Shown here: positions 1 through 19,670 of the stretch, in pieces
Layout: every line of letters starts with the position of its first letter
Numbering within the stretch: the stretch's first letter is position 1
NCBI RefSeq assembly: GCF_034044715.1
Contig: NZ_JAXCLW010000010.1
Location: forward strand, 73,147-97,146
Direction: 5' to 3'
Length of the DNA stretch: 24,000 bases
Origin: Dongia soli
GTDB lineage: Bacteria; Pseudomonadota; Alphaproteobacteria; Dongiales; Dongiaceae
Notes under the pieces: model-generated
Seen by the model: the letters and a program-made list of their open reading frames with translations, nothing else
The model's database searches: none
What the model was told of the DNA's origin: nothing
Made by a program: the position numbers and the translations under genes

Positions 1-46
1 GCAATTGCAGGATGGAGCTGCGGCCGGTGGTGCTCTCGTCACTCAT
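1..46 (-). CDS. 5' end of a gene running off the left edge; possibly the ATP-binding subunit of the ABC importer served by the adjacent binding protein
   Basis: Reverse complement of 1-46 reads ATG AGT GAC GAG AGC ACC ACC GGC CGC AGC TCC ATC CTG CAA TTG = MSDESTTGRSSILQL. An ILQL-type beginning is typical of ABC ATPase N-termini. It lies 134 nt downstream of the binding-protein stop on the same strand. Only 15 codons are visible and the SD is weak. Confidence 0.25.
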   Translation of the reverse strand, partial: MSDESTTGRSSILQL

Positions 47-180: not shown

Positions 181-1344
181 TCATCCGCCGGAAGCTTCAC
201 GCTTCGCCGCCGACATGATGTCCAGCAGCTTGTCGTAATCCGGGACGATGTCATATTCGATCGACCGCGACATTTCCTCTTCCAGGCTGTCCCATTGGAT
301 CGCGTCGAGCTCCTCTTTGGTGAAGAGATCGAAGCATTCCTTATTGCCCATCTGGGCGACCGGATTGAAGGTACCTTCGGCGAAGGCCACGATGTGGGCG
401 GTCTTGGGATCCTGAACATATTGCAGGAACTCCACCGCCAAGGGCGAGACATCCGGATTGTTGACGACCGATGTCACCTCGATCCAGGAGATGCCGCCCA
501 AACCGTCGCGCATCGGTCCCTTTTTTGGTGTGATGCCGCGGATATTGGTGGCGCCATCATGGCGCGCCGGTGAGGCCGAATAGGTGCCGCCGGTCAGATG
601 GAAATCGATCTCGCCGGAAATCATCGCCTGGTTCATCGTGGCGATATCGCCGACCATCTTGGCGCCCTTGAAGACGCGCTTGGCGGCCTCGGTGAATTTC
701 GCCACTTCGGCATCGTCGTGCTGCTTGAACGGATCGAAGCCGGCGATGCAGCAGATGCCGAAGACATTCCAGTCATCGGATTCCAGAACGCCGTATTTCT
801 TGCTATTCGCCGGGTCGTTCCACAGATCCCAGCCCTGGTCCTCTGCCGTCTGCCGGCTCACCTTGTCGGTGTTGACGACGAAACTATAGGGGCCGAAGCG
901 CTGGCACATGCCCAGCAGCTCCTTGCCGCCGTCATCCATCGCCCATTTATAGGGCGGCTTGAACATCGGCAGCATCTTCTCGAAATAAGGCTCCATCTTG
1001 GCCCGGTCCAGCGGCTTGATCAGCTTTTCCGGATACATGATCTTGCGGGCCCAGGGATTGTTGACATTGATCAGATCCCAGACGTTGATTTCGCCCGCCC
1101 GCAACCGGTTGATCATGGTGGGGTCATTGGTGAGTGATTCGGCCTTGACGGTCGCGCTCTTCGATTCACGGAAGGGATCGAGCACCTGGGCCGAGTTGTA
1201 GCCCTCCCAGCAGAGAATATTGAGCTCCTTCGGACGCGCCGCCAAAGCTGATCCCAGGCCTGCAACGCCGCCGGTCGCAAAGGCCGCCGCTGCGGCAGCC
1301 GATGTCTGCATGAAATTACGCCGTGACTGCTTGAACTGCCTCAT
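181..1344 (-). CDS. ABC transporter periplasmic substrate-binding protein, PotD/PotF-like (family 1), with twin-arginine signal peptide
   Basis: 387-aa ORF. The N-terminus is SRRNFMQTSAAAAAAFATGG...GSALA (Tat-type RR motif, hydrophobic core, AxA cleavage site). The body resembles polyamine-type binding proteins (LNILCWEGY, WDLINVNNPW). A strong SD GGGAGGA lies about 5 nt upstream of ATG 1344. Confidence 0.9.
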   Translation of the reverse strand: MRQFKQSRRNFMQTSAAAAAAFATGGVAGLGSALAARPKELNILCWEGYNSAQVLDPFRESKSATVKAESLTNDPTMINRLRAGEINVWDLINVNNPWARKIMYPEKLIKPLDRAKMEPYFEKMLPMFKPPYKWAMDDGGKELLGMCQRFGPYSFVVNTDKVSRQTAEDQGWDLWNDPANSKKYGVLESDDWNVFGICCIAGFDPFKQHDDAEVAKFTEAAKRVFKGAKMVGDIATMNQAMISGEIDFHLTGGTYSASPARHDGATNIRGITPKKGPMRDGLGGISWIEVTSVVNNPDVSPLAVEFLQYVQDPKTAHIVAFAEGTFNPVAQMGNKECFDLFTKEELDAIQWDSLEEEMSRSIEYDIVPDYDKLLDIMSAAKREASGG

Positions 1345-1549
1345 ATCATCCTCCCAGGATCGCTCGGCCGTTGCGTCGCGCGGCCTTTCCGGCCGCGGCC
1401 GATTATCCGCCTGCTCCCCTGCAGACGTGTTATGGGTGCCGGCGGAGCGCTTGCTGCGTCCCGGTTATGATTCCGGCTCTACAAACAATAGAAGAGGCCA
1501 GCCGCCTAATCTTGACATTGCGGCCGGCAATTTTGACATCCTGCGCCGG

Positions 1550-2284
1550 TCAAACGCTTGTCAGGCTAAGCCACTGGCGGATGAGATGGTGACACACCTG
1601 ACGGTAATCGGCAAAACTTGTTGCGAACTGCCGGTCGAGATCGGTTAATAGCCGTGGCTCATCGCGACAAAAGGCAGCGCCGAATACCCGGATCCAGTCG
1701 CGCACGATGTCAATCGTTACCTCGATATGGAATTGCAGCCCATAAGTGGCCCGGCCAAGACGGAATGCCTGGACCGGACAGGCGCCACCCGTCGCCAAAG
1801 TGACGGCGCCTGGTGTCCCGCGGGTTGCTTCATAATGATTCTGGAAGACCGTAAACGGCTCATCGACCGCGCGAAACAGCGGATCCGCCCGTCCAGCCTC
1901 GGTCAATTCCATGTCATAAAAGCCGGATTCGAAGGCCGCCATGCGATAGACCTCGCCGCCGAAACTGCGGGCGATGATCTGCGCGCCGAGGCAAATGCCG
2001 AGAACGGGTCTGTCGGCTGCGTGGAAGCCGACGATGAGGCGCATGGTTTCTTCTAGGAACGAATGCTTTCGAAGATCATTGGCACTCATCGGCCCGCCCA
2101 GCACGATCAGGCCGGCATAGGTGCCGGGCTCGCTCGGCAGGCCGGGATAATTCAGCGGCGCGTGGCTGGCAAAGCGGCTTTCCGGAAAGATTGCGTCATA
2201 GGCAAAGCCGTATTCGATTACCGCCTGTCCCAGGAGGCCGGGCGGCGCGACCAGTTCGGGAACGATGACCAGGATACGCCGCAT
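1550..2284 (-). CDS. Stand-alone class-I (type 1) glutamine amidotransferase-like protein
   Basis: 244 aa. It has the nucleophile elbow GICLGAQ and a C-terminal LQFHIE (His-Glu of the triad). No synthase domain is fused. The start lies 12 nt after the stop of the upstream isochorismatase-family gene. Confidence 0.9.
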   Translation of the reverse strand: MRRILVIVPELVAPPGLLGQAVIEYGFAYDAIFPESRFASHAPLNYPGLPSEPGTYAGLIVLGGPMSANDLRKHSFLEETMRLIVGFHAADRPVLGICLGAQIIARSFGGEVYRMAAFESGFYDMELTEAGRADPLFRAVDEPFTVFQNHYEATRGTPGAVTLATGGACPVQAFRLGRATYGLQFHIEVTIDIVRDWIRVFGAAFCRDEPRLLTDLDRQFATSFADYRQVCHHLIRQWLSLTSV

Positions 2285-2296
2285 GGGCAGTGACGC

Positions 2297-2989
2297 TCAA
2301 AGCCGCATCATGCCGATCAGCTCCTCTGCCGAGACGACATGGCAATAGATCATGTTGATGATGGCCAGTTCCTGTTCATGCAAAGCATGTGAGCCGGCGG
2401 CACAGCAATCCTCGACCACAACGACATTCAAGCTTTCATCAGCGAGGCTGCGCACGGTCGAGGACACGCATTGGTCAGTGAAGATGCCGGTGCAAATGAC
2501 ATTCTTGATGCCGAGATTGTGCAGGATCAGCCGCAGATTGGTACCCGTCAAGGCGCTGTCGGTCGTTTTGGTGACGACGATCTCGTCGCCCTGGGGCGCC
2601 AGTTCCGGCACGATCTGGGAGGCATGTTCGTCTTTCGGCAGGAGCAGATTGTTCCAGCCGGGCATTTTCTGACTGAGCGACCGGTCCCGGCCATCCTTGG
2701 TCTGGCAGGCGATGCGGGCAAACAGGCATTCCATGCCGTTCCGGCGAAACCGTTGCAGCAGATCGGCCGTGCGCGGAATGACCAGTTCTTGCATGCGCTC
2801 ATGGAACGGCGTCCAGGCGTCATAACTGGCGCGGTCGGCCGGCGAGACGCTGGCTCGGTCGGGACGGGCAAGATAAGTGTTCTGGACATCGATCACCAGC
2901 AAGGCGGTTTCCGATGGCGATAAATCAAGATCCGCCGGTTCCGGGGCATCCTGATAATAGAAGGAGCGGTGACGCGTTTTCCAACTCAT
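2297..2989 (-). CDS. Isochorismatase-family (cysteine) hydrolase
   Basis: 230 aa. Family triad motifs are present: LLVIDVQNTY (Asp), VVTKTTDSAL (Lys), TGIFTDQCVSSTVRSL (Cys). The start is 9 nt after the stop of the dehydratase small-subunit gene. Confidence 0.9.
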   Translation of the reverse strand: MSWKTRHRSFYYQDAPEPADLDLSPSETALLVIDVQNTYLARPDRASVSPADRASYDAWTPFHERMQELVIPRTADLLQRFRRNGMECLFARIACQTKDGRDRSLSQKMPGWNNLLLPKDEHASQIVPELAPQGDEIVVTKTTDSALTGTNLRLILHNLGIKNVICTGIFTDQCVSSTVRSLADESLNVVVVEDCCAAGSHALHEQELAIINMIYCHVVSAEELIGMMRL

Positions 2990-2998
2990 GGGGCACTC

Positions 2999-3445
2999 TC
3001 AAAAACGATAGGTGAACAGGCCGCGCCGTTCATAGACCTCGGCCGCCTGCTCAACGAATCCGGCCATTGTGCCGGCGCCATATTGCTCGCGCAGCAAGCG
3101 GGCGGCGTCAAGAAGCTCAATCTTGCTCTTGGCCCGGCCCGGGCGCAGCAACTCGTAGATTTGCAGGATGGTTTCCTGCGGCACGTCGACCAATTCCGCC
3201 GCCCGTTCGAAATTTCGCCCCAAGGTCGGCCGTCCCGCCGCTTCGGCAATTTCCGCCTGTAGCCGCAAAGCGCGTGGTGTGATGCGGAAATCTTCCAAAC
3301 TGGCGGCACCTTGTTCGACCGCTTCCAGGGTCAGATCGGCAAGGGACTTGTTCCGGGCAGAGACCACCAGATCGGGCCGTTTTTCCGCCAGCGGATAATC
3401 CCCAATCGTGAGGCCCAGCTTCATCCTATTGTCGTCTCGTATCAT
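2999..3445 (-). CDS. Coenzyme-B12-dependent diol/glycerol dehydratase small (gamma) subunit, PduE/PddC/DhaB3-like
   Basis: 148 aa. It aligns by eye with the gamma subunit (DYPLAEKRPDLV, ITPRALRLQAEIAEAAGR, LGRNFERAAEL, ILQIYELLRP). Its ATG overlaps the stop of the upstream gene (ATGA at 3442-3445). Confidence 0.9.
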   Translation of the reverse strand: MIRDDNRMKLGLTIGDYPLAEKRPDLVVSARNKSLADLTLEAVEQGAASLEDFRITPRALRLQAEIAEAAGRPTLGRNFERAAELVDVPQETILQIYELLRPGRAKSKIELLDAARLLREQYGAGTMAGFVEQAAEVYERRGLFTYRF

Positions 3446-5724
3446 GGCCGGTCCTCCAGAAAGTCGACCTCGATCTCTTCAGGTTGAGCACCGTCAACCG
3501 CCAGCGAGGTTTCGATGGCATAGATCAACGCGACCTGCGCATGAAACCGTGCACCCATGGCTTCTCCTTCGGTCGGCACGACAACCGGCTCAGGCATCTC
3601 GCCCTTTGCATAAATCGCGGCATTCTCCCCCAGCTGCCGGTAATGCGCGAGCTTGGTGATGGGGGCATTGGAGAAGAGCTCCAGGTTGTGATGCGGCAGC
3701 CGATCCGCTTGATGAATGACGGCCGTCCCCTTGGCCTGCAAGCCGATGCCAATGCCCGAGCCTGCCAACCGCGCGGCGCTGAGGCCGAGAAAGGAGGTGT
3801 CTGCCGTATGTCGCATCCGCACGATGCGCGGTTGACCGCCCTTTGCCGTAATTCCGCCAACCAGTTCGCGGAGCAGCGCCGATAGCGGATGGCCCGCCAG
3901 GCTGCGATAGAGCTTCAGGCCGAAGGCCGGGCTGAGGCCAATGACGACCTCATTCTTCGGCTGGCCGGGCTCGGCGCCGCCGAGAACCCGGTAGCGAATG
4001 CGGCGTTCCTCGTCACGGGCATAGGTGGCCTCGGTACGCAGCACTTCTTCACGGTCGAGCACATCGCGGATCGAAACCAATTCGCGTCGCCGCTGGTCGC
4101 TGAGGCGATAGCCGGTACCCGGTCCGGCATAATCATTCGCGTCATTGACGGCGCTGAGGACGCTGCCATTGCGAATGACCGACGAAGTCTGCAAATAATC
4201 GCCGGAGACCCGCAGGCGCACGACGTTCAACAGATTTTCGGCCTCCTCGCGATAACCCTGCCTGGCCAAGGCGCGGATGACATCCAATACATTGATGCCA
4301 CGTCTTTTGATCTCCTCGCTGATCAAGCTCACATCGCGCGGCAGATAACTCTCCGTATCATTGGAGCCGGAGGCGACGACGACACTGGCTTTCATCGCCG
4401 CGCTCGGCTGGCTGAGCTCCAAATCGGCGAGAACGGCGCTTAAGGCATCCACGGCACGCCGGCGCAGCGCCAGAGCTTCGCTTTCACCGATCGATTTCAA
4501 GCCGCCATCGGCTTCGAAATCCCGCTGCAGCACCAGGAAATCCTCCATTTCCTCGCCATTGAAGGAAGAGGGATTGAAGGAGTTGTCATATTTAAGGATT
4601 GAGCCGAATCCGGAACAGATCAAATCCGATCCGGCGATCAGGAGCGGCAGGATCTTGGCGCCGACGCGAATTTCCGATTCCGAATGCCGCGCATCATTGC
4701 CCGTTGCACATTCCAGGTCCAGCCAGACGGCGATCAGATTCTCGGCCATCAATTCGCGCACACCACCGGGCATGGTCGATGCGAGCGGGGCGCCGTCGAT
4801 GCCACCATTCTGCGTGCCCTGGACACCCATGGCACGCTGCAGGCAGAGACAGCGCGCTTCCAGGTAAAGCAGCGACTTCGATTCGTGAAAGCCCATCAGC
4901 AGTTCCGAGGCGGCACCCGAAGTGCAGCGCATCTTGATGCCGCGCGAAGCGTAAGCGGCGGCCAGAAAGGCCTTCGACCAGGGCGTATCATCGCCATCCA
5001 TGAACGCTTTTTCCGTGCCATAGACCGATACCGTCTCGGCATAGGAGGTGAAGCCGGCCATGCCGATCTGCAATTCTTCCGCTTCCTCGCTGGCGCATTG
5101 AAACAAGGTGCCCCAACGGCCGACGGCAGCGCCGACCGAACAGGCCAACGCATTTGCCCAGGCATTGCGAGCGACACGCATGGTGGTTTCGATCTCGTCG
5201 AAGCCGAAAGCCACGGCGGTCGCGGCATCCGCCGCCAATTGCAAGGGGTCGTCCTTGGCGTTGGTGACATGGGCCTGATTGCCCGGCGTCTTGCGTGCCC
5301 GCATCTTGGAGAAGGCATAGGCGATTTCGATCGACGACAATTGCGCCACCACCTCGGCCAGCTTGGCGGGGGTTAGGCCGTGGGCGAGGCGCGTCAGCTC
5401 GGTGCGAGGGATGTTGAAATCGACCAGCATCCGGGCGATCTCGGTGGACGGCATGGCCATGGCCTTGGGCGCCAGATCGAGATCGAGGTGATGCTCGGCT
5501 ATGAACACATCGATCATGTCGAAATCGGCGGCGGCGACCCCGTCCATCCGGGTGACGCGGCCGTTTTCGATGGCCAGGCCCGGTGCCGGGTCCTTGGCGC
5601 CCTTGAAAGCGGCAAAGCCATTTTGCGGATCTTCCACGGCAAACCGATCGAGCCGTAGCGGCCGCTCGTCCCAATCGGCGAAACGACGCCAGCGATTGGC
5701 GCTTTGCTGCTTTGGTTCGCTCAT
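3442..5724 (-). CDS. Coenzyme-B12-dependent diol/glycerol dehydratase, large (alpha) and medium (beta) subunits fused in one polypeptide
   Basis: 760 aa. Residues 1 to about 556 match PduC/PddA/DhaB1, with motifs QAHVTN, GFDEIETT, SYAETVSVYGTE, DDTPWSKAFLAAAYASRGIKMR, GVQGTQNG, LECATGND, SGFGS..YDN and NDANDYAGPGTGYRL. Residues about 589-760 match PduD/PddB/DhaB2 (VVIGLSPAFG, GSGIGIGLQAKGTAVIHQ, NLELFSNAP, YRQLGENAAIYAKG). SD GGAGAA lies upstream of ATG 5724. Confidence 0.95.
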   Translation of the reverse strand: MSEPKQQSANRWRRFADWDERPLRLDRFAVEDPQNGFAAFKGAKDPAPGLAIENGRVTRMDGVAAADFDMIDVFIAEHHLDLDLAPKAMAMPSTEIARMLVDFNIPRTELTRLAHGLTPAKLAEVVAQLSSIEIAYAFSKMRARKTPGNQAHVTNAKDDPLQLAADAATAVAFGFDEIETTMRVARNAWANALACSVGAAVGRWGTLFQCASEEAEELQIGMAGFTSYAETVSVYGTEKAFMDGDDTPWSKAFLAAAYASRGIKMRCTSGAASELLMGFHESKSLLYLEARCLCLQRAMGVQGTQNGGIDGAPLASTMPGGVRELMAENLIAVWLDLECATGNDARHSESEIRVGAKILPLLIAGSDLICSGFGSILKYDNSFNPSSFNGEEMEDFLVLQRDFEADGGLKSIGESEALALRRRAVDALSAVLADLELSQPSAAMKASVVVASGSNDTESYLPRDVSLISEEIKRRGINVLDVIRALARQGYREEAENLLNVVRLRVSGDYLQTSSVIRNGSVLSAVNDANDYAGPGTGYRLSDQRRRELVSIRDVLDREEVLRTEATYARDEERRIRYRVLGGAEPGQPKNEVVIGLSPAFGLKLYRSLAGHPLSALLRELVGGITAKGGQPRIVRMRHTADTSFLGLSAARLAGSGIGIGLQAKGTAVIHQADRLPHHNLELFSNAPITKLAHYRQLGENAAIYAKGEMPEPVVVPTEGEAMGARFHAQVALIYAIETSLAVDGAQPEEIEVDFLEDRP

Positions 5725-5939
5725 GATTTTCTCCGCCGGTGGTTGAGGCCGAGCCTCCAGGTCCGATCAGCTCCCACCCTAGCAATTTAGGACGCCATCC
5801 AGGCTTTTACTTGACCGGGGCCGCCGCCGGTTTGACAAGTAGAACTGATGTCGGGGATGGAGCGCACGCCGCAGTGCACAAAATGCGGGGGATTGCTGAA
5901 TACCCTGAGCAGAACGCGGCCTGGGACAATTGTCGCTTT

Positions 5940-6264
5940 TACCCTGTTGCATCTGATTTTTCGGCCGAATTTCCGTAGAATAAGCCGCCAAACAGCGTCA
6001 GTCCAATCGATTGCCGGCTGCTGGCGCCTGCGCTGGTGTCGGAACGCGAGGCAATACGCCGAAGATCGATGCCAATGCGGTCATGAGTACGCGACGGAAA
6101 CGTTGGCGTGTTCCAGCCATTGCCGCTTCGATGATACTCATGCCCTCCTCGTGCCGTCCCTTCGCGAATTCGATAATCAAAATGGCATTCTTGCCGCGCG
6201 CCCAATCGTAACAACTGTCACAGAGTCTCTCCTGCCACGACAAGCCGAGAACGATGCCGGGATT
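5940..6264 (-). pseudogene. Remnant of the C-terminal ~100 codons of an RND (AcrB/MexB-type) efflux pump, frameshifted and truncated at both ends
   Basis: One minus frame reads [49 protein letters not shown], the classic RND TM11-12 region. A second minus frame continues [18 protein letters not shown], then diverges and stops. The roughly 900 N-terminal codons are absent because pqiA ends at 6285. Confidence 0.6.
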
Positions 6265-6284
6265 GCGGCATTCCGTTTCTGATG

Positions 6285-7616
6285 CTAACGCGCTGGCACC
6301 GCGCTGGGTTGTGCCTGCAATGACCGGCGGGCCGCGGCCGCATCCCACATTAATCGCGGGTCGAAGATCTCAGCGGCGAACATCGTCAAGATGACCACGG
6401 CGCAAAAGGCGACCGCGCCCATGCCGGGCTCGATGGTGATGGCAGCGCCGAAACGCACCAGGGCGCCGAGCAGGGATTCCATGAAGATGTCGACCATGGA
6501 CCAGCGCCCGATCCACCGCACGACGTAATAGAGCCTGGTGCGGTCGCGCAGCCCGCCCGCATAGCCGGTCTGCACGGCGATCAGCATAATGGCCAGGCCG
6601 ATCAGCTTGAGCACCGGCACGACGATACTGGCAAAGAAGACCAAAGCGGCGAGGGGATACATATGCGCATCGAGCAATTCCTCAACGCCGCCGAGGATGG
6701 TGCTGGGCGCTCCGGCACCGAGCTGCATCACCGTCAAGACGGGGAAGTAGTTGGCGGGGATGTAGAGGATCGCCGCCGCGATGATCAGTGCCCAGGTACG
6801 GGAGACGCTGTTGGGCTTGCGGACATGAAGGGCGCTGCCGCAGCGCGGGCAACACGCATGTTTTCCTTGCGGCAGGCTGACGAGATGGCAGGTCTCACAG
6901 CCGACGGCCCCGGCGAGATTGGCCCGGGCGGGATGCAGTGGAATGCTCTCCGGATCGTGGTACCCGAGGCGCTGCCAGATCAGCTCGCGGTCCAGAGCGG
7001 CGTCAGCCCAGATGATGGTGATGGTGAGCGCCATGAGGGCGAAGACGCCGGTCTCGAGCGTGATATGCACAAGATCGCCCAGCTTCACATAAGCCACGAA
7101 GACGCCGAGGATGAAGACTTCGATCATCGACCAGGGGCGCAATTTCTCCGCCAAAGCAAAAACCCGCCGCAAATGATGTGGTGGTGCGGCTTCATGCAGG
7201 CGCAGCAGGACATAGAGCGTGCCGAGAAGCTTGCCGGCCGGTGCAATCACGGTCACGAAGACCACGACAACCGCCAGCATGCTCATACCGCGGCGTACGA
7301 GCTCCTCTGGCCCGGAAAAGAGACCGGCATGCAATGTGATGCCGGCTGTCTGCACATGCATCAGCGTCGTAGCGCACATGACCGCCATCAGCACGATGGA
7401 GGCGAGAGTGAGAGCGATGCTGTGATCCAAGGGATGTGTGCTGACGCTGTAGAGCGTGATGCCGCAGCGCGCGCATTGGGCGCGCATGCCGGGGCCGATG
7501 GCGGGAACCGATTGAAGCAGACCACAACCGCCGCATTCGCGAAGCTGCGGCTGTGCCGGGGGCATTGCCGTCAGAGTATCGCTAATGGGGGCATCTGCGG
7601 CCGTCATCGGCGTCAC
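6285..7616 (-). CDS. pqiA: PqiA-family integral membrane protein (paraquat-inducible protein A; duplicated PqiA domain)
   Basis: 443 aa. It has two CxxC...CxxC modules each followed by TM helices ([11 protein letters not shown]...CARCG; CETCHLVS...[41 protein letters not shown]). A GTG at 7616 overlaps the pqiC stop (GTGA). An alternative ATG is at 7607. Confidence 0.9.
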
Positions 7617-8203
7617 CGCGCCGTTCTTCCTGTTGCGATTATGGGGGCGAGCTTATCGGCGAGCTGTCCCAAAGCGACGCTGATCGCTGCGACTTCCCCC
7701 TGAACATCCGAGCCCGACGGCGGCACGCTGAAGCGAAAGCTCTGCAGGCGGGGCGCTTCCTGGTCTTTGTAGTTGATGCTTGCCTGGGCCTGCAGGATGA
7801 CATGTCCCGCCGCATCCTGGTCGAGCCGCAGGATATTCAGCTCGACTGTCGCATCCGGTGAAACCGAGACCGCGCCGCTCTCGCCGAGCACTGTGCTTTG
7901 CGGCAGGCGCTGGCTGAGTTCCTCGACCAGAACGCGGCTAAGCATTGCCGATAAGGGTTCGCCCCACCAGTCATTCTCCAGCACATCCAGCTTATAGCCT
8001 TCCGAGGAACGGACGATCTGCTGCCGTTCCAGATAACGCGCAAGGGAAATCTGTTGGAGCACGATCACCGCAGGCCCGGCTTTGTGTTCGGCGCCCGATA
8101 CCGGGGCGATGGTGTAGAGCTGTGGGCTCGGCGAGGCGCAGCCGCCAAGCGCAACTGTCAATCCCAGCGTGGCAATGAAGAGTTGCCGCGGCATCTTTGT
8201 CAT
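7613..8203 (-). CDS. pqiC: PqiC-like outer-membrane lipoprotein (ABC-type transport auxiliary lipoprotein, DUF330/YmbA family)
   Basis: 196 aa. It has a lipobox signal peptide, LTVALGGC-ASPSPQLYTIAP. It sits immediately after pqiB with an ATGA overlap at 8200-8203. Size and N-terminal pattern match the YmbA/PqiC family. Confidence 0.8.
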   Translation of the reverse strand: MTKMPRQLFIATLGLTVALGGCASPSPQLYTIAPVSGAEHKAGPAVIVLQQISLARYLERQQIVRSSEGYKLDVLENDWWGEPLSAMLSRVLVEELSQRLPQSTVLGESGAVSVSPDATVELNILRLDQDAAGHVILQAQASINYKDQEAPRLQSFRFSVPPSGSDVQGEVAAISVALGQLADKLAPIIATGRTAR

Positions 8204-9927
8204 TCAAGCCCCCCCGCCGGTCTGCCTTTGATGAATGCTTCCGGATGCTGCACGAGCATGTCGGCCAACGACCGGAAGGAGCGAACCGCTTCGTTAAGCT
8301 GCACGATGAGCCGCTGCAGGTCGCGGCTGAATTTGGTGTTGTCGCCGTAGCCGGTATTCAGCGACAGGAACAGCCGATCGACATTGGTCATGGTCTTTTG
8401 CAGGCCCATCATCACTTGCGGCAATTGCTTGAAAGCCGGTCCTGTTCCGGTGTTGAGCTCGCGCACGAAGGCGCTCGCTTCTTTGACGGCGCCGGCTGCT
8501 TCAGCAAGCGTCTGCCGCAGCTCTGTACTCCTGGAGAGGTCGTTGGCCGAAGCCAGGATGCCGTTGAGGCTTGCGCCGATCTGGGCAAAGGGAATTGCAT
8601 TCAGTTTATTGAGCAGGTCGGTTGCGGAGGTTTGCAGGCCGCTCAAGCCGGCGGCATCGCTGGCCGGGAGCACCACATCCGTGCCTTCCATCCGCGCCGT
8701 CGCCGGCGTGGCGCTCGGTATGAATTCGAGCGCCACGACCTGTTGGCCGGTCAGCAGATTGCTGCTCTGCAGCGTCGCGCGCAGGCCGCGCTTCACCATG
8801 GTGTCCGCGGCTTCCAGGGCCGTCTTGAAAACCGCTTTCGTACCGACGCCCAGGATGCGTTCCGGTTCGATCTCATAATGGACCGGAGCCAGGATATCGT
8901 TTCTGTCGCCATCATAGACCAGCCCGACGGCGGTGACGCGGCCGATGGTAAGGCCGTGCATCGTCACTTCAGATCCGGGCGCAATGCCCCGGACGGAGCC
9001 AGAGAAATAGGAGATAACCGGGATCTTCCGGTTATAGGAAGCAGCATCGGCGGTGTCGCGATCGGGGAATAGTGGGAAAACGTGGTTCTGCACACTCGTG
9101 GTGCGGCCATGGCTTTGGGGCGGGGTTTCGAAAGCCATGCCGCCCAGCAGGATGGCGCGCAGGGATTCGACCTGAAGCTCGACACCGCCGCCGCCGAATT
9201 TCACGGAAACGCCCGACGCGTTCCAGAAGCGGGTATCGTCATTCACATAGGCGTCATAGGGGGCACGGACGAAAGTCCGGATCGTGACGCTTTCCGCCAT
9301 ATCGGCGATGTCCCAGCCGAGCACTTCGCCGACATCGAGATCGCGGAAGAAAACAGGCGAGCCGACGGAAATCGAGCCTAAGCGGTTGGCCTTGATCAGA
9401 AAGGTGCGGCCCGGCACATGCGCTTCCTGGACCGGCGGATCTTCGCGTCCGACGAAGTTCCGTTTCGGCTTCCCCGGCTTTTCAGGCGGCAGCATCGCGA
9501 TATAGGAGCCGGAGAGCACAGTCTCCAGTCCGGAGACATTGCCTGCGAATAATCGTGGCTTGACCACCCAGAACACTGTTTGATCGGTCAGCAGCGGCTC
9601 GGCTTCGCGCGTCGTCGCGATTGTCACGATGACACGCGAATTGTCTGGGGTAAGGGTGAAGCTTTGGACTGTGCCGAAGACGATATCCTTGAAGCGCAAT
9701 TGCGATTGCCCAGCCGTCAGGCCTTCGGCGCTTTCGAATGAGACCGTGATCGTCGGGCCCTTCTTCGACCAGGTATCCCAGGCAAGCCAGCCGCCGATTG
9801 CAATGGCAACCAACGGAATGATCCAGATAATCGGGATGCGCCGTGCGCGGCGCGTCTTTGCCTGCGGATGCGCCGGTTCTGCCGAATGTGGCGCCTCCTG
9901 CGCGGGTGGCTCGATGATGTCACTCAT
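8200..9927 (-). CDS. pqiB: PqiB-like MCE-domain intermembrane transport protein
   Basis: N-terminal anchor and first MCE domain read RRIPIIWIIPLVAIAIGGWLAWDTWSKKGPTITVSFESAEGLTAGQSQLRFKDIVFGTV, followed by repeated MCE-like segments and a C-terminal helical region. The ORF track opens at a TTG at 10005. The ATG at residue 27 (coordinate 9927 by ORF-track arithmetic) is preceded by AAGGAA and is the likelier start. Confidence 0.9.
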   Translation of the reverse strand: MSDIIEPPAQEAPHSAEPAHPQAKTRRARRIPIIWIIPLVAIAIGGWLAWDTWSKKGPTITVSFESAEGLTAGQSQLRFKDIVFGTVQSFTLTPDNSRVIVTIATTREAEPLLTDQTVFWVVKPRLFAGNVSGLETVLSGSYIAMLPPEKPGKPKRNFVGREDPPVQEAHVPGRTFLIKANRLGSISVGSPVFFRDLDVGEVLGWDIADMAESVTIRTFVRAPYDAYVNDDTRFWNASGVSVKFGGGGVELQVESLRAILLGGMAFETPPQSHGRTTSVQNHVFPLFPDRDTADAASYNRKIPVISYFSGSVRGIAPGSEVTMHGLTIGRVTAVGLVYDGDRNDILAPVHYEIEPERILGVGTKAVFKTALEAADTMVKRGLRATLQSSNLLTGQQVVALEFIPSATPATARMEGTDVVLPASDAAGLSGLQTSATDLLNKLNAIPFAQIGASLNGILASANDLSRSTELRQTLAEAAGAVKEASAFVRELNTGTGPAFKQLPQVMMGLQKTMTNVDRLFLSLNTGYGDNTKFSRDLQRLIVQLNEAVRSFRSLADMLVQHPEAFIKGRPAGGLE

Positions 9928-10258
9928 GGGAGTTCCTTCTTTCGAGCTGTTTTGCCTGTCCTGCAGCGCGCGGAGGCGACCCCCGGTTACGCCGATCGAA
10001 CTCAACGCATGGTCGGTACGTAATGCGGTCCAGAAAATAACGTGACTTCAGAAGTAGCCTGCCGATCGATCTGATGCAGTCGTCATGGGTTCCATCTTCA
10101 CCAGTCACTTGAAGGGCGAATCGATGGGACAAGGGGAATAGTCCAAACCCGCATGCTATAGTCGTCTAATTCTTATACAGCGGGCCGGGCTCCGTCAAAT
10201 GGTCGGCAATGCCCCATTGGGCGTTGGGGGAATCCCCGGCTTGCAGGCAGCGAATGCA

Positions 10259-10306: not shown

Positions 10307-11416
10307 TCAGCTTGGTTCCGCGTGGAGCGGTATGATTCTGTCGGTCTTCACGGCAAGCCGGACCCTGGCGCCGGATGCTAGATCCTGGTTAGTGGTCGCC
10401 GAGGCGACGATGATCTGGCCGTCGGCGAGCTTGAACTGGAAGTCCGTATAGATGCCGCGATAGACGACTCGTTCCAGTACTGCATCGAAAGCGGTCTCGC
10501 CCTCCGCGACATTTCCGACGGAGTGGGCATTAATGCGGATGTCTTCGTTGCGGATGGCGACCGCGGGCGGATTGGCGGGATTGGCCACGGCACCGCAATC
10601 GAGGCGGAAGGCAGCGCAGTCGAAGACGGTTTGCGTCCCGCTGCCGATAAAACGTCCTTCGACAACATTGCTGCCGCGGAAGAACTGCGCGACGAATTTC
10701 GTGCGGGGCTGGCGGAACAAAGCCTGGGGCGCATCGACCTGCACCAGATAGCCCCAATTGAGCACGGCGACGCGGTCGCTCATGGTCAGGGCTTCTTCCT
10801 GATCATGGGTGACATAGACGAACGCGGTGCCGGTGGCGCGCTGGATATCCTTGAGCTGAACCTGCATCTCACGCCGGATCTTTTCGTCGAGCGCGGAAAG
10901 CGGCTCATCGAGCAGCAGCAGGCGGGGACGCGGCGCCAAGGCGCGGGCGATGGCGACGCGCTGCTGCTCGCCACCGGAGAGCTTGGTCACCGGCTTGTCC
11001 TCGAAACCGGGCAGGCTCACCAGATCGAGCAGTTCCGAGACGCGCTCGCGCAAGGCCGCGCGATCGAGATTACTGCGCCGCAGACCATAGCCGATATTCT
11101 GCGCCACGGTCATATGCGGGAAATTGGCATATTGCTGGAACACCATGCCAAGGCCGCGCCGCCAGGGCGGCAGATCGGTCACGTCCTCGCCATTGATGAG
11201 GATGCGGCCGCCATCGGGCTGTTCCAGGCCGGAGATCATGCGCAGGACGGTGGATTTGCCGGAACCGCTGGGGCCCAGCATCGTGAAGAACTCGCCATTG
11301 CCGACCTGGAGATCGACACCGGCGGCGGTTACGCGGTCGCCGAATTTCTTCCAGACGGTGCGGACGTGAAGGAGGGGAGCGGAAGCCGCTGCAGCCTGCA
11401 TTGATACATCCTGCAT
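10307..11416 (-). CDS. ABC transporter ATP-binding protein, PotA/MalK-like with C-terminal TOBE-type domain
   Basis: 369 aa. Walker A is GPSGSGKST, the signature is LSGGEQQRVAIARAL, Walker B is LLLLDEPLSALD, and the H-loop is VYVTHDQEEA. An alternative ATG at 11401 has a better AGGA 8 nt upstream. Confidence 0.95.
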   Translation of the reverse strand: MQDVSMQAAAASAPLLHVRTVWKKFGDRVTAAGVDLQVGNGEFFTMLGPSGSGKSTVLRMISGLEQPDGGRILINGEDVTDLPPWRRGLGMVFQQYANFPHMTVAQNIGYGLRRSNLDRAALRERVSELLDLVSLPGFEDKPVTKLSGGEQQRVAIARALAPRPRLLLLDEPLSALDEKIRREMQVQLKDIQRATGTAFVYVTHDQEEALTMSDRVAVLNWGYLVQVDAPQALFRQPRTKFVAQFFRGSNVVEGRFIGSGTQTVFDCAAFRLDCGAVANPANPPAVAIRNEDIRINAHSVGNVAEGETAFDAVLERVVYRGIYTDFQFKLADGQIIVASATTNQDLASGARVRLAVKTDRIIPLHAEPS

Positions 11417-11424
11417 GGGCGGGT

Positions 11425-12099
11425 TCAGCCTTGATCGAGAGAGAGTAACAATGCCGTGCGGACGGCATCGAGCATCATGTCCAGGCTCATCGAGGCGAGA
11501 TCGGCGCGCTGATGCAGTTCGAGACGGCCTTCCGCGAGGAGATCGTCGAGCAGATCTGCCACCTGCTGCGGCAGATAAGGCAGATGGATGAAGCCGCAGC
11601 GTGTCTCCAGGCCCAGGCGCTGACAGGCACCGAGCGCCCGATAGAGCGTGGTGTTACACAGGAACGTGCCGGCGGTATCCGAACTGCGCGCCGGAATGCC
11701 CTTGCCGCGCAAGGCGGCGATGATCTTCGCGACCGGCAGGGTGACGGCGCGGCCATCGGGGCCGCCGGGCTCGATCGGCGTATCGAGCGGACGCTGGCCA
11801 TCATTATCGGCGATTTCGAAACTGGCGCGGTTGACGGCGATCCGTTCGAGCCGGATGACCGCTTCGCCGGGCCACAGGCCGAGCGACGCGATCACCACCG
11901 GCTTATGCTTGGCGATCGCGTCTTCCAGCGGTTTCTTCGCGGCATCGAAGGAAACCGGCAGGAGCAGGCCGCGAACCACGGCATCGCGGATCGTGCTGCC
12001 GTCGAGCGCCCGGACGATCTCGGCCGAGGGATTGAGCGGCCTGCCGCCATAGGGTTGGAAGCCGGTAAGGAGGATTTCGCGCATGATCTCAACCTTCAT
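11425..12099 (-). CDS. pcp: Pyroglutamyl-peptidase I (pyrrolidone-carboxylate peptidase, peptidase family C15)
   Basis: 224 aa. It has ILLTGFQPYGG..LNPS. The catalytic triad contexts match the Bacillus enzyme: LERIAVN (Glu), TAGTFLCN (Cys), GFIHLPY (His). ATG 12099 overlaps the permease stop by 11 nt. An alternative ATG is at 12084. Confidence 0.9.
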   Translation of the reverse strand: MKVEIMREILLTGFQPYGGRPLNPSAEIVRALDGSTIRDAVVRGLLLPVSFDAAKKPLEDAIAKHKPVVIASLGLWPGEAVIRLERIAVNRASFEIADNDGQRPLDTPIEPGGPDGRAVTLPVAKIIAALRGKGIPARSSDTAGTFLCNTTLYRALGACQRLGLETRCGFIHLPYLPQQVADLLDDLLAEGRLELHQRADLASMSLDMMLDAVRTALLLSLDQG

Positions 12100-12871
12100 T
12101 CGCTGTCGTCGCGGCCTGGCCCCGGCGTCCCAGCACCACCAGCGCCAGGATGAGGAGTAGCGTTACCGCGATGATGAGGCTCATCAAAGCATACATATTA
12201 GGCGTCAGGCCGACCTGCTGGTAGCGCGACCAGACGAAGGTCTGAACCGTGTTATTGCCGCCTTGCACGATGGCAGTTCGGACCGTCTCGTTGAAGGACA
12301 GGATAATTGAGAAGATCGCCGCGCCACTGATGCCGGGCGCGATCTGCGGCAATTCGATATCCCAGAAAGCCTGCAGGCGATTGGAGCCACAAGTATAGGC
12401 GGCTTCCAGATAGATCGTGTCGAAGCCGGACATCACCGTCAGTATGATCAGGAAGGCGAAGGGCAGGGCCCAGAGGATCTGCACCACCGCCATGGTGAAG
12501 AGCGAGGGCGGGATCGCCGTCAACTTGAAGAACAGGCTGGTGGAAACGCCCATGCTGGCGCCGGGGATGAAGAGCGGCAGCAGGATCACCGTGATGATCA
12601 GCCGGGGAATGCCGAAAGCGCGCACCGCTTGGGCGGCAGCGAGGCCGAGCAGTGGTGCTGCGATGCCGACGATGATCGCGAGAATGACGGAATTGAGCAG
12701 CGCGCCCATCAACATCTGGTCGCCGGCGATAGCGCCGAAGCTGGTGAAATTCATCGTGCCGGTGGCCGGGTCCTGCATGGCGAGGAGGACCGGCGGTACC
12801 AACGGCGCATAAAGAAAGACGAGGACGCCGATCAGAAAGAGCCAGACGAGACTGCGAGATGTCATGGTCAC
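12089..12871 (-). CDS. ABC transporter permease (PotC-like)
   Basis: 260 aa with about 6 hydrophobic segments. The EAA loop is YLEAAYTCGSNRLQAFWDIELPQIAPG. There is a 4-nt overlap with the upstream permease gene. Confidence 0.9.
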   Translation of the reverse strand: MTMTSRSLVWLFLIGVLVFLYAPLVPPVLLAMQDPATGTMNFTSFGAIAGDQMLMGALLNSVILAIIVGIAAPLLGLAAAQAVRAFGIPRLIITVILLPLFIPGASMGVSTSLFFKLTAIPPSLFTMAVVQILWALPFAFLIILTVMSGFDTIYLEAAYTCGSNRLQAFWDIELPQIAPGISGAAIFSIILSFNETVRTAIVQGGNNTVQTFVWSRYQQVGLTPNMYALMSLIIAVTLLLILALVVLGRRGQAATTANEG

Positions 12872-13743
12872 CGTCCCAGCATCTTGCCGAGGAAGAGCCG
12901 CAGGTCGAAGAAGCGCAGCCAGAGGGTGAGCATCAGCAGCATGCAGCCGACCACGACCGAGGACATGGCCGCGGCCATCGGATAGTTCAGCACATCGAGC
13001 GAACTGGTGATCGCATTGCCCATGAGCTGGTAGCCGACGCCGCCCAGGATCTGCGAGACGGCGACCTCGCCGAAGGAACCGACGAAGCCGAAGATCGCCG
13101 CGGCGGAGACGCCGGGCAAGGAGAGTGGCAGGACCACCCGCAGGAAGGTGCCGAGCGGCGGTTCGCCCAGCATCCAGCTTGCCTCGATCAGCCGCCGGTC
13201 GATGGCGCTGAGCGAAAGCCAGATGGGATAGACCATGAAGGGCATATAGGCGGCGATGAGGCCAAGATAGACAGAGAAATCACTGAACAGCAGCCAGTCC
13301 ACGGGTGCGCCGGTCAGGCCGATCAGCTGCAGAAACCCGTTGATCGGCCCCGTGCGTCCTAGAAGATAAGCCCAGGCGAAGGTCCGGATCACGTAATTCA
13401 CCAGGAAGGGCACCGAGAGCAGAAACAGGAAAATCCGGGTGCGCTGGGGTGACAGTTTGAAGGTCGCGAGATAGGCGACCAAATAGGCGATCGCCAGCAT
13501 GATGATTGTCGCGCTGGCTGCCACCCAGAAGCTGCGTTGAAGGACCGTGAAGCGCGCGCCCTCAAAGAAGAGGGCGTATGAAGCCAGGGTGAAACCTGGC
13601 TTCATGCCGATCATCTGCCGCTCCCAGAAGCTGACCATCAAGGTCAGCACCAGCGGAGCGATAATAGCGACGGCGCAGATCAGAACGGGTCCGCCAAGCA
13701 GCGCTATCGTGCCGGCATCGCGGCGCTTTATAGCAAAGCTCAT
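12868..13743 (-). CDS. ABC transporter permease (PotB-like)
   Basis: 291 aa, multi-TM. The EAA loop is IEASWMLGEPPLGTFLRVVLPLSLPG. Confidence 0.9.
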   Translation of the reverse strand: MSFAIKRRDAGTIALLGGPVLICAVAIIAPLVLTLMVSFWERQMIGMKPGFTLASYALFFEGARFTVLQRSFWVAASATIIMLAIAYLVAYLATFKLSPQRTRIFLFLLSVPFLVNYVIRTFAWAYLLGRTGPINGFLQLIGLTGAPVDWLLFSDFSVYLGLIAAYMPFMVYPIWLSLSAIDRRLIEASWMLGEPPLGTFLRVVLPLSLPGVSAAAIFGFVGSFGEVAVSQILGGVGYQLMGNAITSSLDVLNYPMAAAMSSVVVGCMLLMLTLWLRFFDLRLFLGKMLGR

Positions 13744-13780
13744 GATACCCGTCCCAGAAATCCCGGTCCCAAATTGGCGC

Positions 13781-14959
13781 TTACGCGGCTTTGAAACGCT
13801 GCCACTGTTCTTCGTAGGTCTCGATATTAGTCGGCCAGCGGGCCTGCCAGGTGCCGCCGGATTCGAACTTCTTCTTCACCCCGGCATCGATCTCGGCAAC
13901 CTTCTGCGCCGTCGCCTTGTCGAATTTGGACGACTTCGCCGCGTAAGCCGGCGCGCCCGGATTGGTCATATAGCCGCGCATACTGGTGATGACCGCGCCA
14001 TATTCGGGGCTCAGCATGTAATCCAGCAACTGATAGGATGCCTCGATCTTTTCCGGCGAGCGGTCGCCGGCGACGAGATAGGCCGCCATGGCCCAGAGCA
14101 GATAGCCTTCCTTCGGCTGGGCATAGACCGCGTTGATGCCCTTTGCCTTGGCGGCGAAGACCATCGGCTCCCAGCAATCCATCACATAGACTTCCTGGTT
14201 CACCAGCAGATTGACGGCCTGTTCGAAGCTGGACCAGACCACGCGGAACTGGCCTTCCTTCTTCTTCTGGATCAGGAAGTCAACCACCTTGGTGATCTCG
14301 TCCGGCGTCATATCGGCCGGGTCCTTGATGTCGGCGAGACCGGCGCTTTTCATGTAAAGCGCGGTCTTCTGGCCAGCCGAGGTGTAGTTGTCCTCGATGG
14401 CCACATAGCCCTTGAATTTCGGATCGAACAAAGCGGCGTAGGAATCAAGCGTGCCGCCGGTCTTCTCCGGCAGATAGGCGAAGGCATCGCCCTGCAGCAC
14501 GGTGGGGACGCCATAGACCTTGCCGTCATAGCCGATGAAGTCGAAGCCCTTCGAGCCCGGCTTGAGATAAGACGAGATATAGGTGTTGCTCTGCCAGTTC
14601 TTCAGCTTGCTGACATCGATCGGCAGGATGAGCTTGTTTTCGACCAGCGGCTTCTGCATGCCGCCGACGATGTTGATGATGTCATAGGTCTGCTGGCCGC
14701 CGCCGGCGAGCAACTGGTTCAGCACGGCCGAAGGGCCGTTGCCGATCGCCGCGACATTGACCTTGTTGCCGGTGGCCTTGGTGTAGTCCGACCAATCGCC
14801 GGGATCACCGACGCCAATATCCGCGAGCGTTACCGTCTGGCCGGCGGCGAAAGCGGCACCCGGCCGGAGCGCCAGCGCCCCCATGCTCAGCGCGCCGATT
14901 CGGGCGGAAGCGCCCGCCAAAAGGCTGCGGCGGTTAAATTGAATCGATCCTGCGGTCAT
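13781..14959 (-). CDS. ABC transporter periplasmic substrate-binding protein, PotD/PotF-like, with twin-arginine-type signal peptide
   Basis: 392 aa. The N-terminus is FNRRSLLAGASARIGALSMGALAL..AAFA. The body is paralogous in pattern to the 181-1344 protein (YDIINIVGGMQKPLVENKLILPID versus WDLINVNNPWARKIMYPEKLIKPLD). It is the first gene of the importer operon. Confidence 0.9.
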   Translation of the reverse strand: MTAGSIQFNRRSLLAGASARIGALSMGALALRPGAAFAAGQTVTLADIGVGDPGDWSDYTKATGNKVNVAAIGNGPSAVLNQLLAGGGQQTYDIINIVGGMQKPLVENKLILPIDVSKLKNWQSNTYISSYLKPGSKGFDFIGYDGKVYGVPTVLQGDAFAYLPEKTGGTLDSYAALFDPKFKGYVAIEDNYTSAGQKTALYMKSAGLADIKDPADMTPDEITKVVDFLIQKKKEGQFRVVWSSFEQAVNLLVNQEVYVMDCWEPMVFAAKAKGINAVYAQPKEGYLLWAMAAYLVAGDRSPEKIEASYQLLDYMLSPEYGAVITSMRGYMTNPGAPAYAAKSSKFDKATAQKVAEIDAGVKKKFESGGTWQARWPTNIETYEEQWQRFKAA

Positions 14960-15012
14960 TTTCTATGTCTCTCCTCCCATGCGGTCCGGTTGCGGACCTT
15001 TAACGATGTTGG

Positions 15013-15030
15013 CAAAATATCGATAATTTG
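15013..15030. promoter_or_regulatory. 18-bp near-perfect palindrome CAAAATATCGATAATTTG, a candidate operator upstream of the ABC/pcp operon
   Basis: 8 of 9 symmetric pairs match around the central ATCGAT. It lies 54-71 nt upstream of the binding-protein ATG (14959). It shares the core TATCGATAA..TT with the palindrome at 15732-15741. Confidence 0.35.
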
Positions 15031-15124
15031 TCGAGGAATTACTATAAAGAGAAAACGCTGGTGACAGGGTGATCTCCCAATCGAAAGCTGGCGCGCGAGA
15101 GCCAGCGCCAAGAAGCTTTCAATC

Positions 15125-15664: not shown

Positions 15665-15712
15665 GGCTTGGTCTCCGATAACTTTGGTTAAGCGCCGCCC
15701 GGGGATGCCGGG

Positions 15713-15742
15713 TTGACAAAACGACGACATTTTATCGATAAC
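15713..15742 (+). promoter_or_regulatory. Candidate sigma70-type promoter (TTGACA-N18-GATAAC) for the oxoprolinase operon, overlapped by the perfect palindrome TTATCGATAA (15732-15741)
   Basis: TTGACA is at 15713-15718 and GATAAC at 15737-15742. The 10-bp perfect palindrome covers the spacer/-10 junction. A half-site, CGATAACTT, recurs exactly 60 bp upstream (15676-15684 versus 15736-15744). Confidence 0.3.
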
Positions 15743-15783
15743 TTATCTGTATGACGAAGCTTGCGGCATCATCGAGGCATATC

Positions 15784-19404: not shown

Positions 19405-19411
19405 GGCGGGG

Positions 19412-19587: not shown

Positions 19588-19643
19588 TTGTTACCTGTGC
19601 CGCGCCAATTCATCATTTTTAGCACCACGGCCTGCCTCTTCCG

Positions 19644-19670
19644 TGGACCTCGGATCAAGTGCGAGCAAGC
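19644..19670. repeat. Degenerate third copy of the repeat arm
   Basis: TGGACCTCGGATCAAGTGCGAGCAAGC compares with TGGACCCTCGGATCAAGTCCGAGGGTGACAAGC at 19428-19460. It has the same orientation, with one 1-nt deletion, one 5-nt deletion and one substitution. Confidence 0.45.

Follow-up and report, generated by a model that had tools for sequence, protein, structure and literature searches.

A fused B12-type diol dehydratase of Dongia soli as the candidate front part of an alphaproteobacterial amino-alcohol regulon

Here, we followed up a 24,000-nucleotide stretch of Dongia soli (contig NZ_JAXCLW010000010.1, positions 73,147 to 97,146; the window from here on), whose minus strand encodes a fused alpha-beta subunit of an adenosylcobalamin (AdoCbl)-dependent diol dehydratase, its gamma subunit, and two putative amidohydrolases. 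Our preferred reading, held with moderate confidence, is that these genes form the front part of a conserved amino-alcohol regulon, in which the dehydratase would act on an amino-diol and the hydrolases would unmask the amine. By sequence comparison, the predicted regulon is shown to occur in several hundred alphaproteobacterial species.

The fused dehydratase and its substrate pocket

The alpha-beta gene (3442-5724, minus strand, 760 aa) matched both Dehydratase_LU (PF02286, 4.6e-211) and Dehydratase_MU (PF02288, 1.9e-23), and the gamma gene (2999-3445, minus strand, 148 aa) matched Dehydratase_SU (PF02287, 2.1e-46). They are followed on the same strand by genes for an isochorismatase-like cysteine amidohydrolase (2297-2989, 230 aa; Pfam Isochorismatase, 6.9e-35) and a stand-alone class-I glutamine amidotransferase (GATase)-like hydrolase (1550-2284, 244 aa; Pfam GATase, 1.1e-19). 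An initial annotation, made from the letters alone, had proposed a hidden Markov model scan for these five families, and all of them were matched. Among the NCBIfam models, that of the large subunit was passed (823.7 bits, cut-off 788), and those of the medium (181, cut-off 248) and small subunits (171, cut-off 196) both scored under the cut-off. The fused protein was 47-51% identical to Klebsiella, Citrobacter, and archaeal plasmid-borne enzymes.

The substrate and metal motifs of the Klebsiella enzyme had been described as intact, and indeed QAHVTN, ETT, YAETVSVYGTE, VQGTQNG, ND, and SG..YDN are all in the window protein. We aligned it to K. pneumoniae 9VI2 and analyzed the columns over 82 fused homologues, numbering the pocket residues as in K. 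oxytoca. The Ca2+ and catalytic residues Q141, H143, E170, E221, Q296, D335, S362, and F374 were invariant in the 82 homologues and in the window protein. With its domains and these residues kept, the dehydratase looks functional, as had been proposed.

The canonical pocket residues S301 and Q336 are not kept, and the window protein has D301 and A336 instead. All 82 homologues carried S301D, C302G, M373S, and the change equivalent to T200F of glycerol dehydratase (GDH-T200F); position 336 was Ala in 80 and Thr in two. T337 was replaced by Arg or Lys in 77/82, with Arg in the window protein. According to a review, the C3 hydroxyl of glycerol is directed at Ser301 in one binding mode, and both S301A and Q336A raise the Km for 1,2-propanediol 6- to 10-fold (PMC7674605). 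A table in the same review lists lower glycerol inactivation for S301A and Q336A –about 14-fold less for K. oxytoca Q336A–, and the title of a paper cited there has S301A/Q336A acting on longer chain 1,2-diols. Since the S301D carboxylate and the smaller Ala or Thr at 336 would sit at the C3 substituent of the substrate, they suggest a cationic, amino-bearing diol. Thus, the substrate is most likely a vicinal diol with a cationic amino group, and 3-amino-1,2-propanediol would be the simplest candidate.

The pocket can also be read differently. One possibility, which we regard as real and rather unlikely, is an ordinary 1,2-propanediol or glycerol dehydratase standing beside an aminopropanol pathway, with both leading to propionaldehyde and sharing an aldehyde dehydrogenase and a propionate-CoA ligase. 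Axen et al. offered such a "bifunctional locus" reading for the mycobacterial RMM2 loci, and here the changes in the pocket would serve merely to adjust stability or inactivation. Keeping all catalytic and Ca2+ residues and passing the large-subunit model agree with it, and the lower glycerol inactivation of Q336A would fit the loss of the reactivase (PMC7674605). However, it leaves an invariant charged S301D in a hydrophobic or neutral pocket unexplained, and the higher Km of S301A and Q336A for 1,2-propanediol counts against it too.

Another reading, which we find improbable, builds on residue 337, next to the pocket: Asp301 and Arg337 would hold some other polar vicinal diol, such as 4-hydroxythreonine (giving aspartate semialdehyde) or a dihydroxy-amide with its aldehyde hydrolyzed by the amidases. 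Arg or Lys in most homologues speaks for it, whereas this residue is Leu in the actinobacterial enzymes with D301.

Gene layout, operator, and predicted regulon

The layout of the window was exactly as noted in the initial annotation: the open reading frame (ORF) list, domain scans, and sequence gave five minus-strand genes with an ATGA overlap and gaps of 9, 12, and 205 nt. The alpha-beta stop and the gamma ATG overlap in ccATGAta (ATGA at 3445-3442), an overlap of four nucleotides shared by most related loci. Spacers of 9 and 12 nt precede the isochorismatase and GATase ATGs, and 205 nt precede the fifth gene (181-1344, minus strand, 387 aa). The latter encodes a periplasmic solute-binding protein of PotD/F-like class (SBP_bac_8) with a twin-arginine translocation (Tat) signal, SRRNFM, that passes TIGR01409; it had no relative among solved structures at E ≤ 0.01. 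An ATP-binding cassette (ABC) importer ATPase gene has its start at position 46 and continues past the left window edge (1-46, minus strand), which bears out the importer that had been expected after the binding protein. Its N-terminus, MSDESTTGRSSILQL, agrees in 14/15 residues with the ATPase of the closest relative, locus L005.

A direct repeat, TGTCAA-N16-GTCAAG, is common to the intergenic regions, with two matches in the window against 0.00 in shuffled sequence. One copy, TGTCAAACCGGCGGCGGCCCCGGTCAAG (5810-5837, minus strand), is 86 nt upstream of the dehydratase start codon, and the other, TGTCAAAATTGCCGGCCGCAATGTCAAG (1511-1538, minus strand), lies within the 205-nt gap upstream of the binding-protein gene. 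The single transcript proposed earlier is thus supported by the layout for the first four genes –dehydratase, gamma, isochorismatase-like, and GATase–, and not for the binding-protein gene, which has an operator copy of its own. The Rfam scan of the window gave no match, and so no B12 riboswitch in it; sigma-70 and terminator sites in the window were no commoner than in shuffled sequence.

We scanned the near-identical pattern TGTCAA-N16-GTCAA in 82 related loci and found 64 matches, none of them intragenic. Sixty-two were directly upstream of a dehydratase (12), binding-protein or permease (28), or APH-family kinase (22) gene, and Dongia-type loci had three operator-like sites each. As the same repeat precedes each of them, the dehydratase, transporter-dehydrogenase, and kinase-lyase operons appear to be co-regulated. 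They presumably form one regulon under a QhpR-like AraC protein encoded among the three units, with the repeat as its predicted operator. This regulator scored 320 bits on the NCBIfam QhpR model (cut-off 250), which describes the regulator of an amine dehydrogenase operon.

Relatives of the fused protein at 75-93% identity number in the thousands and belong to Dongia, Ferrovibrio, Hyphomicrobium, Methyloceanibacter, Aestuariivirga, and unnamed Alphaproteobacteria. With each species represented by one genome, a scan gave 494 matching stretches, and 80 loci were kept; a search at 50%-identity representatives returned mostly fragments, and a few full-length ones were used. For gene calling in 86 loci, we relied on codon log-odds, with the RefSeq annotation of L085 as a check on the model, and the proteins were clustered. 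Gene order was near constant in these loci: dehydratase, gamma, the isochorismatase-like and GATase genes when present, transporter, short-chain dehydrogenase/reductase (SDR), an often divergent AraC gene, APH kinase, and class-III pyridoxal phosphate (PLP) enzyme. For counting neighbors, we used the 54 loci having at least 8 kb downstream. The gamma subunit was present in 53, a transporter in 51 (the binding-protein orthologue at the same position in 34), the SDR in 49, the APH kinase in 46, the class-III enzyme in 40, the isochorismatase-like gene in 39, and the GATase in 19. Recurring extra neighbors were a propionate-CoA-ligase-like (PrpE-like) synthetase, NAD aldehyde dehydrogenases, and a CoA-acylating aldehyde dehydrogenase.

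These neighborhoods change the picture of an orphan dehydratase, partnered with two hydrolases and lacking alcohol and aldehyde enzymes, that was drawn from the window alone. The loci of relatives continue with transporter, SDR, kinase, and class-III genes, and aldehyde dehydrogenases or the propionate-CoA ligase are often nearby, so the orphan look is largely due to the window edge, which cuts the locus. In the closest relatives (91, 89, 86, and 85% identical), the binding protein is followed by the rest of the ABC importer and by SDR, AraC, APH, and class-III genes. Because they all carry them there, these genes very probably lie just left of our window. A reactivase and an aldehyde dehydrogenase beyond the left edge had been named as counting against that picture; to judge from relatives, it probably holds for the aldehyde enzyme and fails for the reactivase. 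On the other hand, the association of isochorismatase-like, GATase, and binding-protein genes is conserved across related loci rather than fortuitous. The PrpE-like and aldehyde dehydrogenase neighbors would also suit an ordinary dehydratase feeding propionaldehyde into shared enzymes.

Three transporter classes hold the same slot across lineages: PotD-like (as in the window), APC permease, and polyol-type CUT1, with trehalose/maltose and sorbitol binders as its best solved relatives. An amino-polyol is suggested, since it is the overlap of the usual substrates of the three classes. There is one transporter only per locus, of amine or polyol type where classifiable, and this, together with a regulator of the amine-responsive QhpR type, argues against the ordinary dehydratase. 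On plasmids of Shinella and Agrobacterium, a 64%-identical fused enzyme sits within a single operon with a sugar/polyol-type ABC system, SDR, phosphotransferase, and class-III aminotransferase, and without either hydrolase. The nitrogen-containing vicinal diol of the initial annotation is accordingly still the most plausible substrate, given S301D, the amine-type regulator, and the amine/polyol transporters; calling its pathway undescribed was overstated.

Some loci carry additional genes. In L021, L023, L025, L028, L032, and L050-L052, all of one Dongiaceae subgroup, SDR and AraC are separated by a gene of the class-II aldolase/adducin family (NCBIfam PRK07490, 363 bits). In Aestuariivirga loci L057, L071, and L081, genes for bacterial microcompartment (BMC) shell proteins, BMC-H (EutM-like) and BMC-T (CcmP-like), follow the APH gene at about 19.5-21 kb in each, as an alphaproteobacterial RMM-like microcompartment adjoining the dehydratase.

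Hydrolases, downstream partners, and candidate pathway

The D34/K141/C174 triad of the isochorismatase-like protein, which aligns to the 6AZO amidase, was invariant in 16 orthologues, and orthologues were 68-83% identical across genera. Its best solved relatives were 6AZO ("putative amidase"), RutB, and biuret hydrolase, and its scores were far under the equivalog cut-offs (84 against 370 bits for BiuH, 68 against 378 for RutB). The GATase triad, C98/H186/E188, was invariant in 22 orthologues (55-89% identical), found in Dongia-type loci only, and no synthase partner domain or gene is adjacent to it. Both enzymes would probably free the amine from N-acyl, carbamoyl, or gamma-glutamyl conjugates. 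In L041 (12259-13392), gamma and the isochorismatase-like protein are encoded as one 377-aa ORF, with the stop turned into a sense codon and the 9-nt spacer in frame; this anecdotal case from a single metagenome-assembled genome (MAG) may be a real fusion or a base error.

The hydrolases turned out to be accessory rather than the main partners of the dehydratase. Among the 54 loci, 27 had the isochorismatase-like gene only, seven the GATase only, 12 both, and eight neither; the Rhizobiaceae plasmids also have neither, and in L005 the isochorismatase-like gene is missing. In our opinion, it is therefore quite unlikely that these two hydrolases are the main partners of the dehydratase in a stand-alone new pathway with no alcohol or aldehyde enzymes. 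Such a pathway would agree with a window devoid of alcohol and aldehyde enzymes and with an isochorismatase-like gene directly after gamma in 48/76 loci. However, nearly all relatives have SDR, kinase, class-III, and aldehyde dehydrogenase or PrpE genes under the same operator, and many loci, Rhizobiaceae included, do without the hydrolases. The same dispensability, and the lack of a direct tie to the kinase and lyase genes, weakens the reading with another polar diol, which the position of the amidases directly after the gamma gene would favor.

In the reverse direction, we collected 80 metagenome loci with isochorismatase-like orthologues, of which 67 were judged. The gamma gene was directly upstream in 48 of them, and 18 of the other 19 had no dehydratase genes. 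Several of these 18 keep permease, SDR, AraC, APH, class-III, and aldehyde dehydrogenase genes, so the isochorismatase-like gene appears to belong to the amino-alcohol module and the dehydratase to be an add-on at its head. L116, L132, and L159 are loci of this kind, with a 73-75%-identical orthologue. An ordinary dehydratase would likewise be expected to look like an add-on. We also considered a serinol route, in which kinase and lyase give hydroxyacetone and the SDR gives 1,2-propanediol for the dehydratase; it is disfavored because dehydratase-less loci keep the rest of the pathway, and it leaves S301D unexplained.

Outside Alphaproteobacteria, actinobacterial fused dehydratases about 50% identical carry D301/G302/T336. 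In their loci, the gene of a Peptidase_S58 (DmpA-like) amidase overlaps the gamma gene by stop and start codons, and genes for a PLP decarboxylase, an SDR, and an M20 peptidase often accompany them. A Gaiellales fused enzyme that keeps S301 has no amidase or other neighbors of this type. As three unrelated amidohydrolase families sit right after gamma, the link of D301-type dehydratases with amide hydrolysis seems real. The earlier idea of a hydrolase freeing an amine-bearing diol from a conjugate fits this recurrence, and the co-occurrence of D301 with amidases in two phyla would not be expected of an ordinary dehydratase. For the reading with another polar diol, the PLP amino-acid decarboxylase and M20 peptidase of the actinobacterial loci are a point in favor.

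The actinobacterial operons are themselves of interest. In L170 (6360-15605), L171 (1140-7303), and L169, a Gaiellales-like operon comprises a D301-type fused dehydratase, gamma, Peptidase_S58, in some cases the PLP decarboxylase, and then reactivase alpha and beta, SDR, and M20 peptidase; apparently, this is a sister system that no one has described, and S58 orthologues are numerous in metagenomes. An apparent fusion of gamma to the S58 peptidase in L169 was rejected as an assembly frameshift, since a 99%-identical protein has a gene of its own (358 aa), and two genes are seen where the locus is intact. L168 (2927-5570, Gaiellales) shows a third fused-dehydratase context: gamma precedes the fused alpha-beta gene, in reversed order, the enzyme keeps S301 with A336, and GntR, major facilitator superfamily (MFS), malate synthase, and fumarylacetoacetate (FAA)-hydrolase genes adjoin it.

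The partner genes outside the window were characterized from L005, the 91% identical relative. Its SDR had M. smegmatis 3PK0, 6CI8, and 6CI9 as best solved relatives (1e-88 to 1e-91), and we take 6CI8 and 6CI9 to be the (S)-1-amino-2-propanol dehydrogenase of Mallette and Kimber. These authors reportedly proposed a kinase and phospho-lyase route for the RMM/AAUM microcompartment, and on that analogy the class-III enzyme is a candidate phospho-lyase on an amino-alcohol phosphate. It was closest to putrescine and acetylornithine transaminases (putrescine aminotransferase, 1e-54) and matched the PbfA lyase model under its cut-off. For the APH protein, the best solved relative was 6EF6 (5e-84), an aminopropanol kinase (PMC7314540).

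Putting the units together, the first would comprise the fused AdoCbl dehydratase and gamma, with or without one or two cysteine amidohydrolases; the second, the importer and an SDR of the (S)-1-amino-2-propanol dehydrogenase type; and the third, an aminopropanol-kinase-type APH and the candidate phospho-lyase, frequently joined by aldehyde dehydrogenases or a propionate-CoA ligase. With the canonical regiochemistry, 3-amino-1,2-propanediol would give 3-aminopropanal and possibly, through aldehyde dehydrogenases, beta-alanine. With a reversed regiochemistry, it would give aminoacetone, a known starting compound of the SDR, kinase, and lyase route, which would carry it to propanal and propionyl-CoA. 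This second option would use every conserved gene, by a chemistry unseen in this family.

Several points weigh against the amino-diol reading. The canonical product, 3-aminopropanal, leaves the SDR and kinase without an obvious role, and, to our knowledge, 3-amino-1,2-propanediol is not a well-known natural metabolite. The best solved relatives of the class-III enzyme are true transaminases, with no phospho-lyase among the 60 matches listed, and the module persists in loci that have no dehydratase. Moreover, the role given to Asp301 is drawn from a homologous structure as described in a review, and the left-flank genes of this genome are placed by way of its relatives. A bolder version is doubtful, though worth stating: the D301 clade would be a new class of B12 diol dehydratases, acting on amino-diols released from amide conjugates by interchangeable amidases, without a DdrAB-type reactivase in Alphaproteobacteria and maybe with reversed regiochemistry.

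The absence of reactivase, shell, adenosyltransferase, and aldehyde dehydrogenase genes from the 24 kb, pointed out in the initial annotation, was confirmed. By tblastn, Klebsiella DdrA, DdrB, and adenosyltransferase had no match in the window, nor within 10 kb in any of the other 86 loci fetched, and BMC-H and BMC-T proteins and two aldehyde dehydrogenases had none in the window. Pfam scans of the other large window ORFs agreed, with no reactivase, adenosyltransferase, shell, or aldehyde dehydrogenase. In the literature, dhaF and dhaG are absent from three genomes with the fused gene, those of M. loti, M. opportunistum, and Hyphomicrobium sp. (table in PMC4777399). The actinobacterial D301-type loci do carry reactivase alpha and beta, so the pocket change alone does not abolish the need for it. 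Slower inactivation has been reported for an engineered fusion; speculatively, work without a reactivase could be explained by the effect of Q336A on inactivation or by the fusion slowing it.

Other genes occupy the rest of the window. Upstream, PqiABC-like genes (6285-10005, minus strand) encode a PqiB-like protein with three MlaD domains, a PqiC-like lipoprotein, and PqiA; in E. coli, the order is pqiA-pqiB-pqiC. A 116-aa ORF (5998-6348, minus strand) covers positions 931-979 of 1021 of ACR_tran only (1.1e-14), the C-terminal end of an AcrB-type resistance-nodulation-division (RND) pump, and on its sequence is what is left of a pump gene, lying between pqiA and the promoter region of the dehydratase. 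As the flanks differ in every relative, the dehydratase locus looks mobile between genome positions. Further away, a gamma-glutamyl/5-oxoproline-related cluster (10307-22785) holds an ABC importer in which a pyroglutamyl peptidase gene is embedded (Peptidase_C15, 11425-12099), a MarR-type regulator, a 1217-aa hydantoinase A/B (oxoprolinase-type), gamma-glutamyltranspeptidase, and proline-racemase-family genes. Its closeness is probably a coincidence, because relatives do not keep it in synteny with the dehydratase locus.

Novelty and comparison with known systems

Parts of this system were already published, and so the initial annotation went too far in calling the pathway undescribed: the fusion and the missing reactivase (PMC4777399; Liu et al. 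2010) and the pairing of diol dehydratase genes with such a pathway in RMM2 (PMC4207490). In the literature searched, there was no account of a shell-less, co-regulated operon across Alphaproteobacteria, of the operator, or of an S301D signature recurring with unrelated amidases. Searches on diol dehydratase with phospho-lyase or aminopropanol, on 3-amino-1,2-propanediol, and on follow-up of the aminopropanol kinase returned nothing relevant. Apparently new is thus the S301D/Q336A-T signature in 82 fused homologues, recurring with unrelated amidases in two phyla.

If the amino-diol reading is true, AdoCbl diol dehydratase chemistry would reach a new substrate class, amine-bearing diols, and the diol dehydratase genes of RMM2-type loci would gain a role, a question since 2014. 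It would also mean a widespread soil and freshwater route for the nitrogen and carbon of amino-alcohols and amino-diols, considering the 494 stretches at one genome per species. An aerobic enzyme, fused by nature and apparently independent of a reactivase, may be of use for engineering 3-hydroxypropionaldehyde (3-HPA) and 1,3-propanediol production, which is limited mainly by inactivation. With the operator predicted and a carrier, Dongia mobilis, in culture, the hypothesis is open to direct testing.

The classical enzymes PddABC/PduCDE and DhaB123 of Klebsiella, Salmonella, and Citrobacter share the three subunit families, the Ca2+ ligands, and the catalytic residues. In contrast to them, alpha and beta are fused here, the pocket carries S301D, Q336A, C302G, T200F, and M373S, and the hosts are aerobic Alphaproteobacteria. 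Moreover, the window and fetched loci have no reactivase, adenosyltransferase, shell, PduP/Q/L/W, or DhaT nearby.

EutBC is also an AdoCbl radical enzyme that turns a vicinal amino-alcohol into an aldehyde; however, its protein family is unrelated, it eliminates the amine itself, and a dedicated reactivase, EutA, goes with it. For the downstream half, the chemistry we predict is that of the amino-alcohol kinase and O-phosphate phospho-lyase which Jones and Turner reportedly described in Pseudomonas and Erwinia in the 1970s, converting 1-aminopropan-2-ol or ethanolamine into aldehyde, ammonia, and phosphate. That route has no B12 enzyme.

The actinobacterial loci L170 and L171 resemble ours in the fused D301/G302/T336 enzyme and in an amidohydrolase gene overlapping gamma. 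They differ in that the amidase is a Peptidase_S58, in having DDR reactivase alpha and beta, a PLP decarboxylase, and an M20 peptidase, and in lacking APH and class-III genes within 9 kb.

Closer still are the naturally fused dhaB1-dhaB2 enzymes of Mesorhizobium loti, Hyphomicrobium, and Mycobacterium (Martins-Pinheiro et al. 2016, PMC4777399; Liu et al. 2010, as cited in PMC7674605), which have the same architecture, with that of Hyphomicrobium in the same clade. The accounts in these two sources treat the enzyme as a glycerol dehydratase for 3-HPA, and the kinase/lyase/SDR context, the hydrolases, the operator, and S301D are not detailed in them.

Finally, RMM2 was described as the RMM1 genes (SDR, phosphotransferase, aminotransferase, permease, and regulator) plus diol dehydratase genes, whose use was left open (Axen et al. 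2014, PMC4207490); this precedent also lends support to an ordinary dehydratase beside an aminopropanol pathway. RMM2/AAUM (aminoacetone utilization) of Mycobacterium and, going by relatives of the window locus, our amino-alcohol regulon share SDR, APH kinase, class-III enzyme, permease, and regulator beside diol dehydratase genes. However, shell genes are lacking from the window and from most relatives, the three Aestuariivirga loci being those that carry them. The dehydratase here is co-oriented and co-regulated with the pathway rather than divergent, accessory amidohydrolases are present, and the regulator is AraC/QhpR-like instead of GntR, except on the Rhizobiaceae plasmids. The locus thus appears to be a shell-less alphaproteobacterial counterpart of the RMM2/aminoacetone locus.

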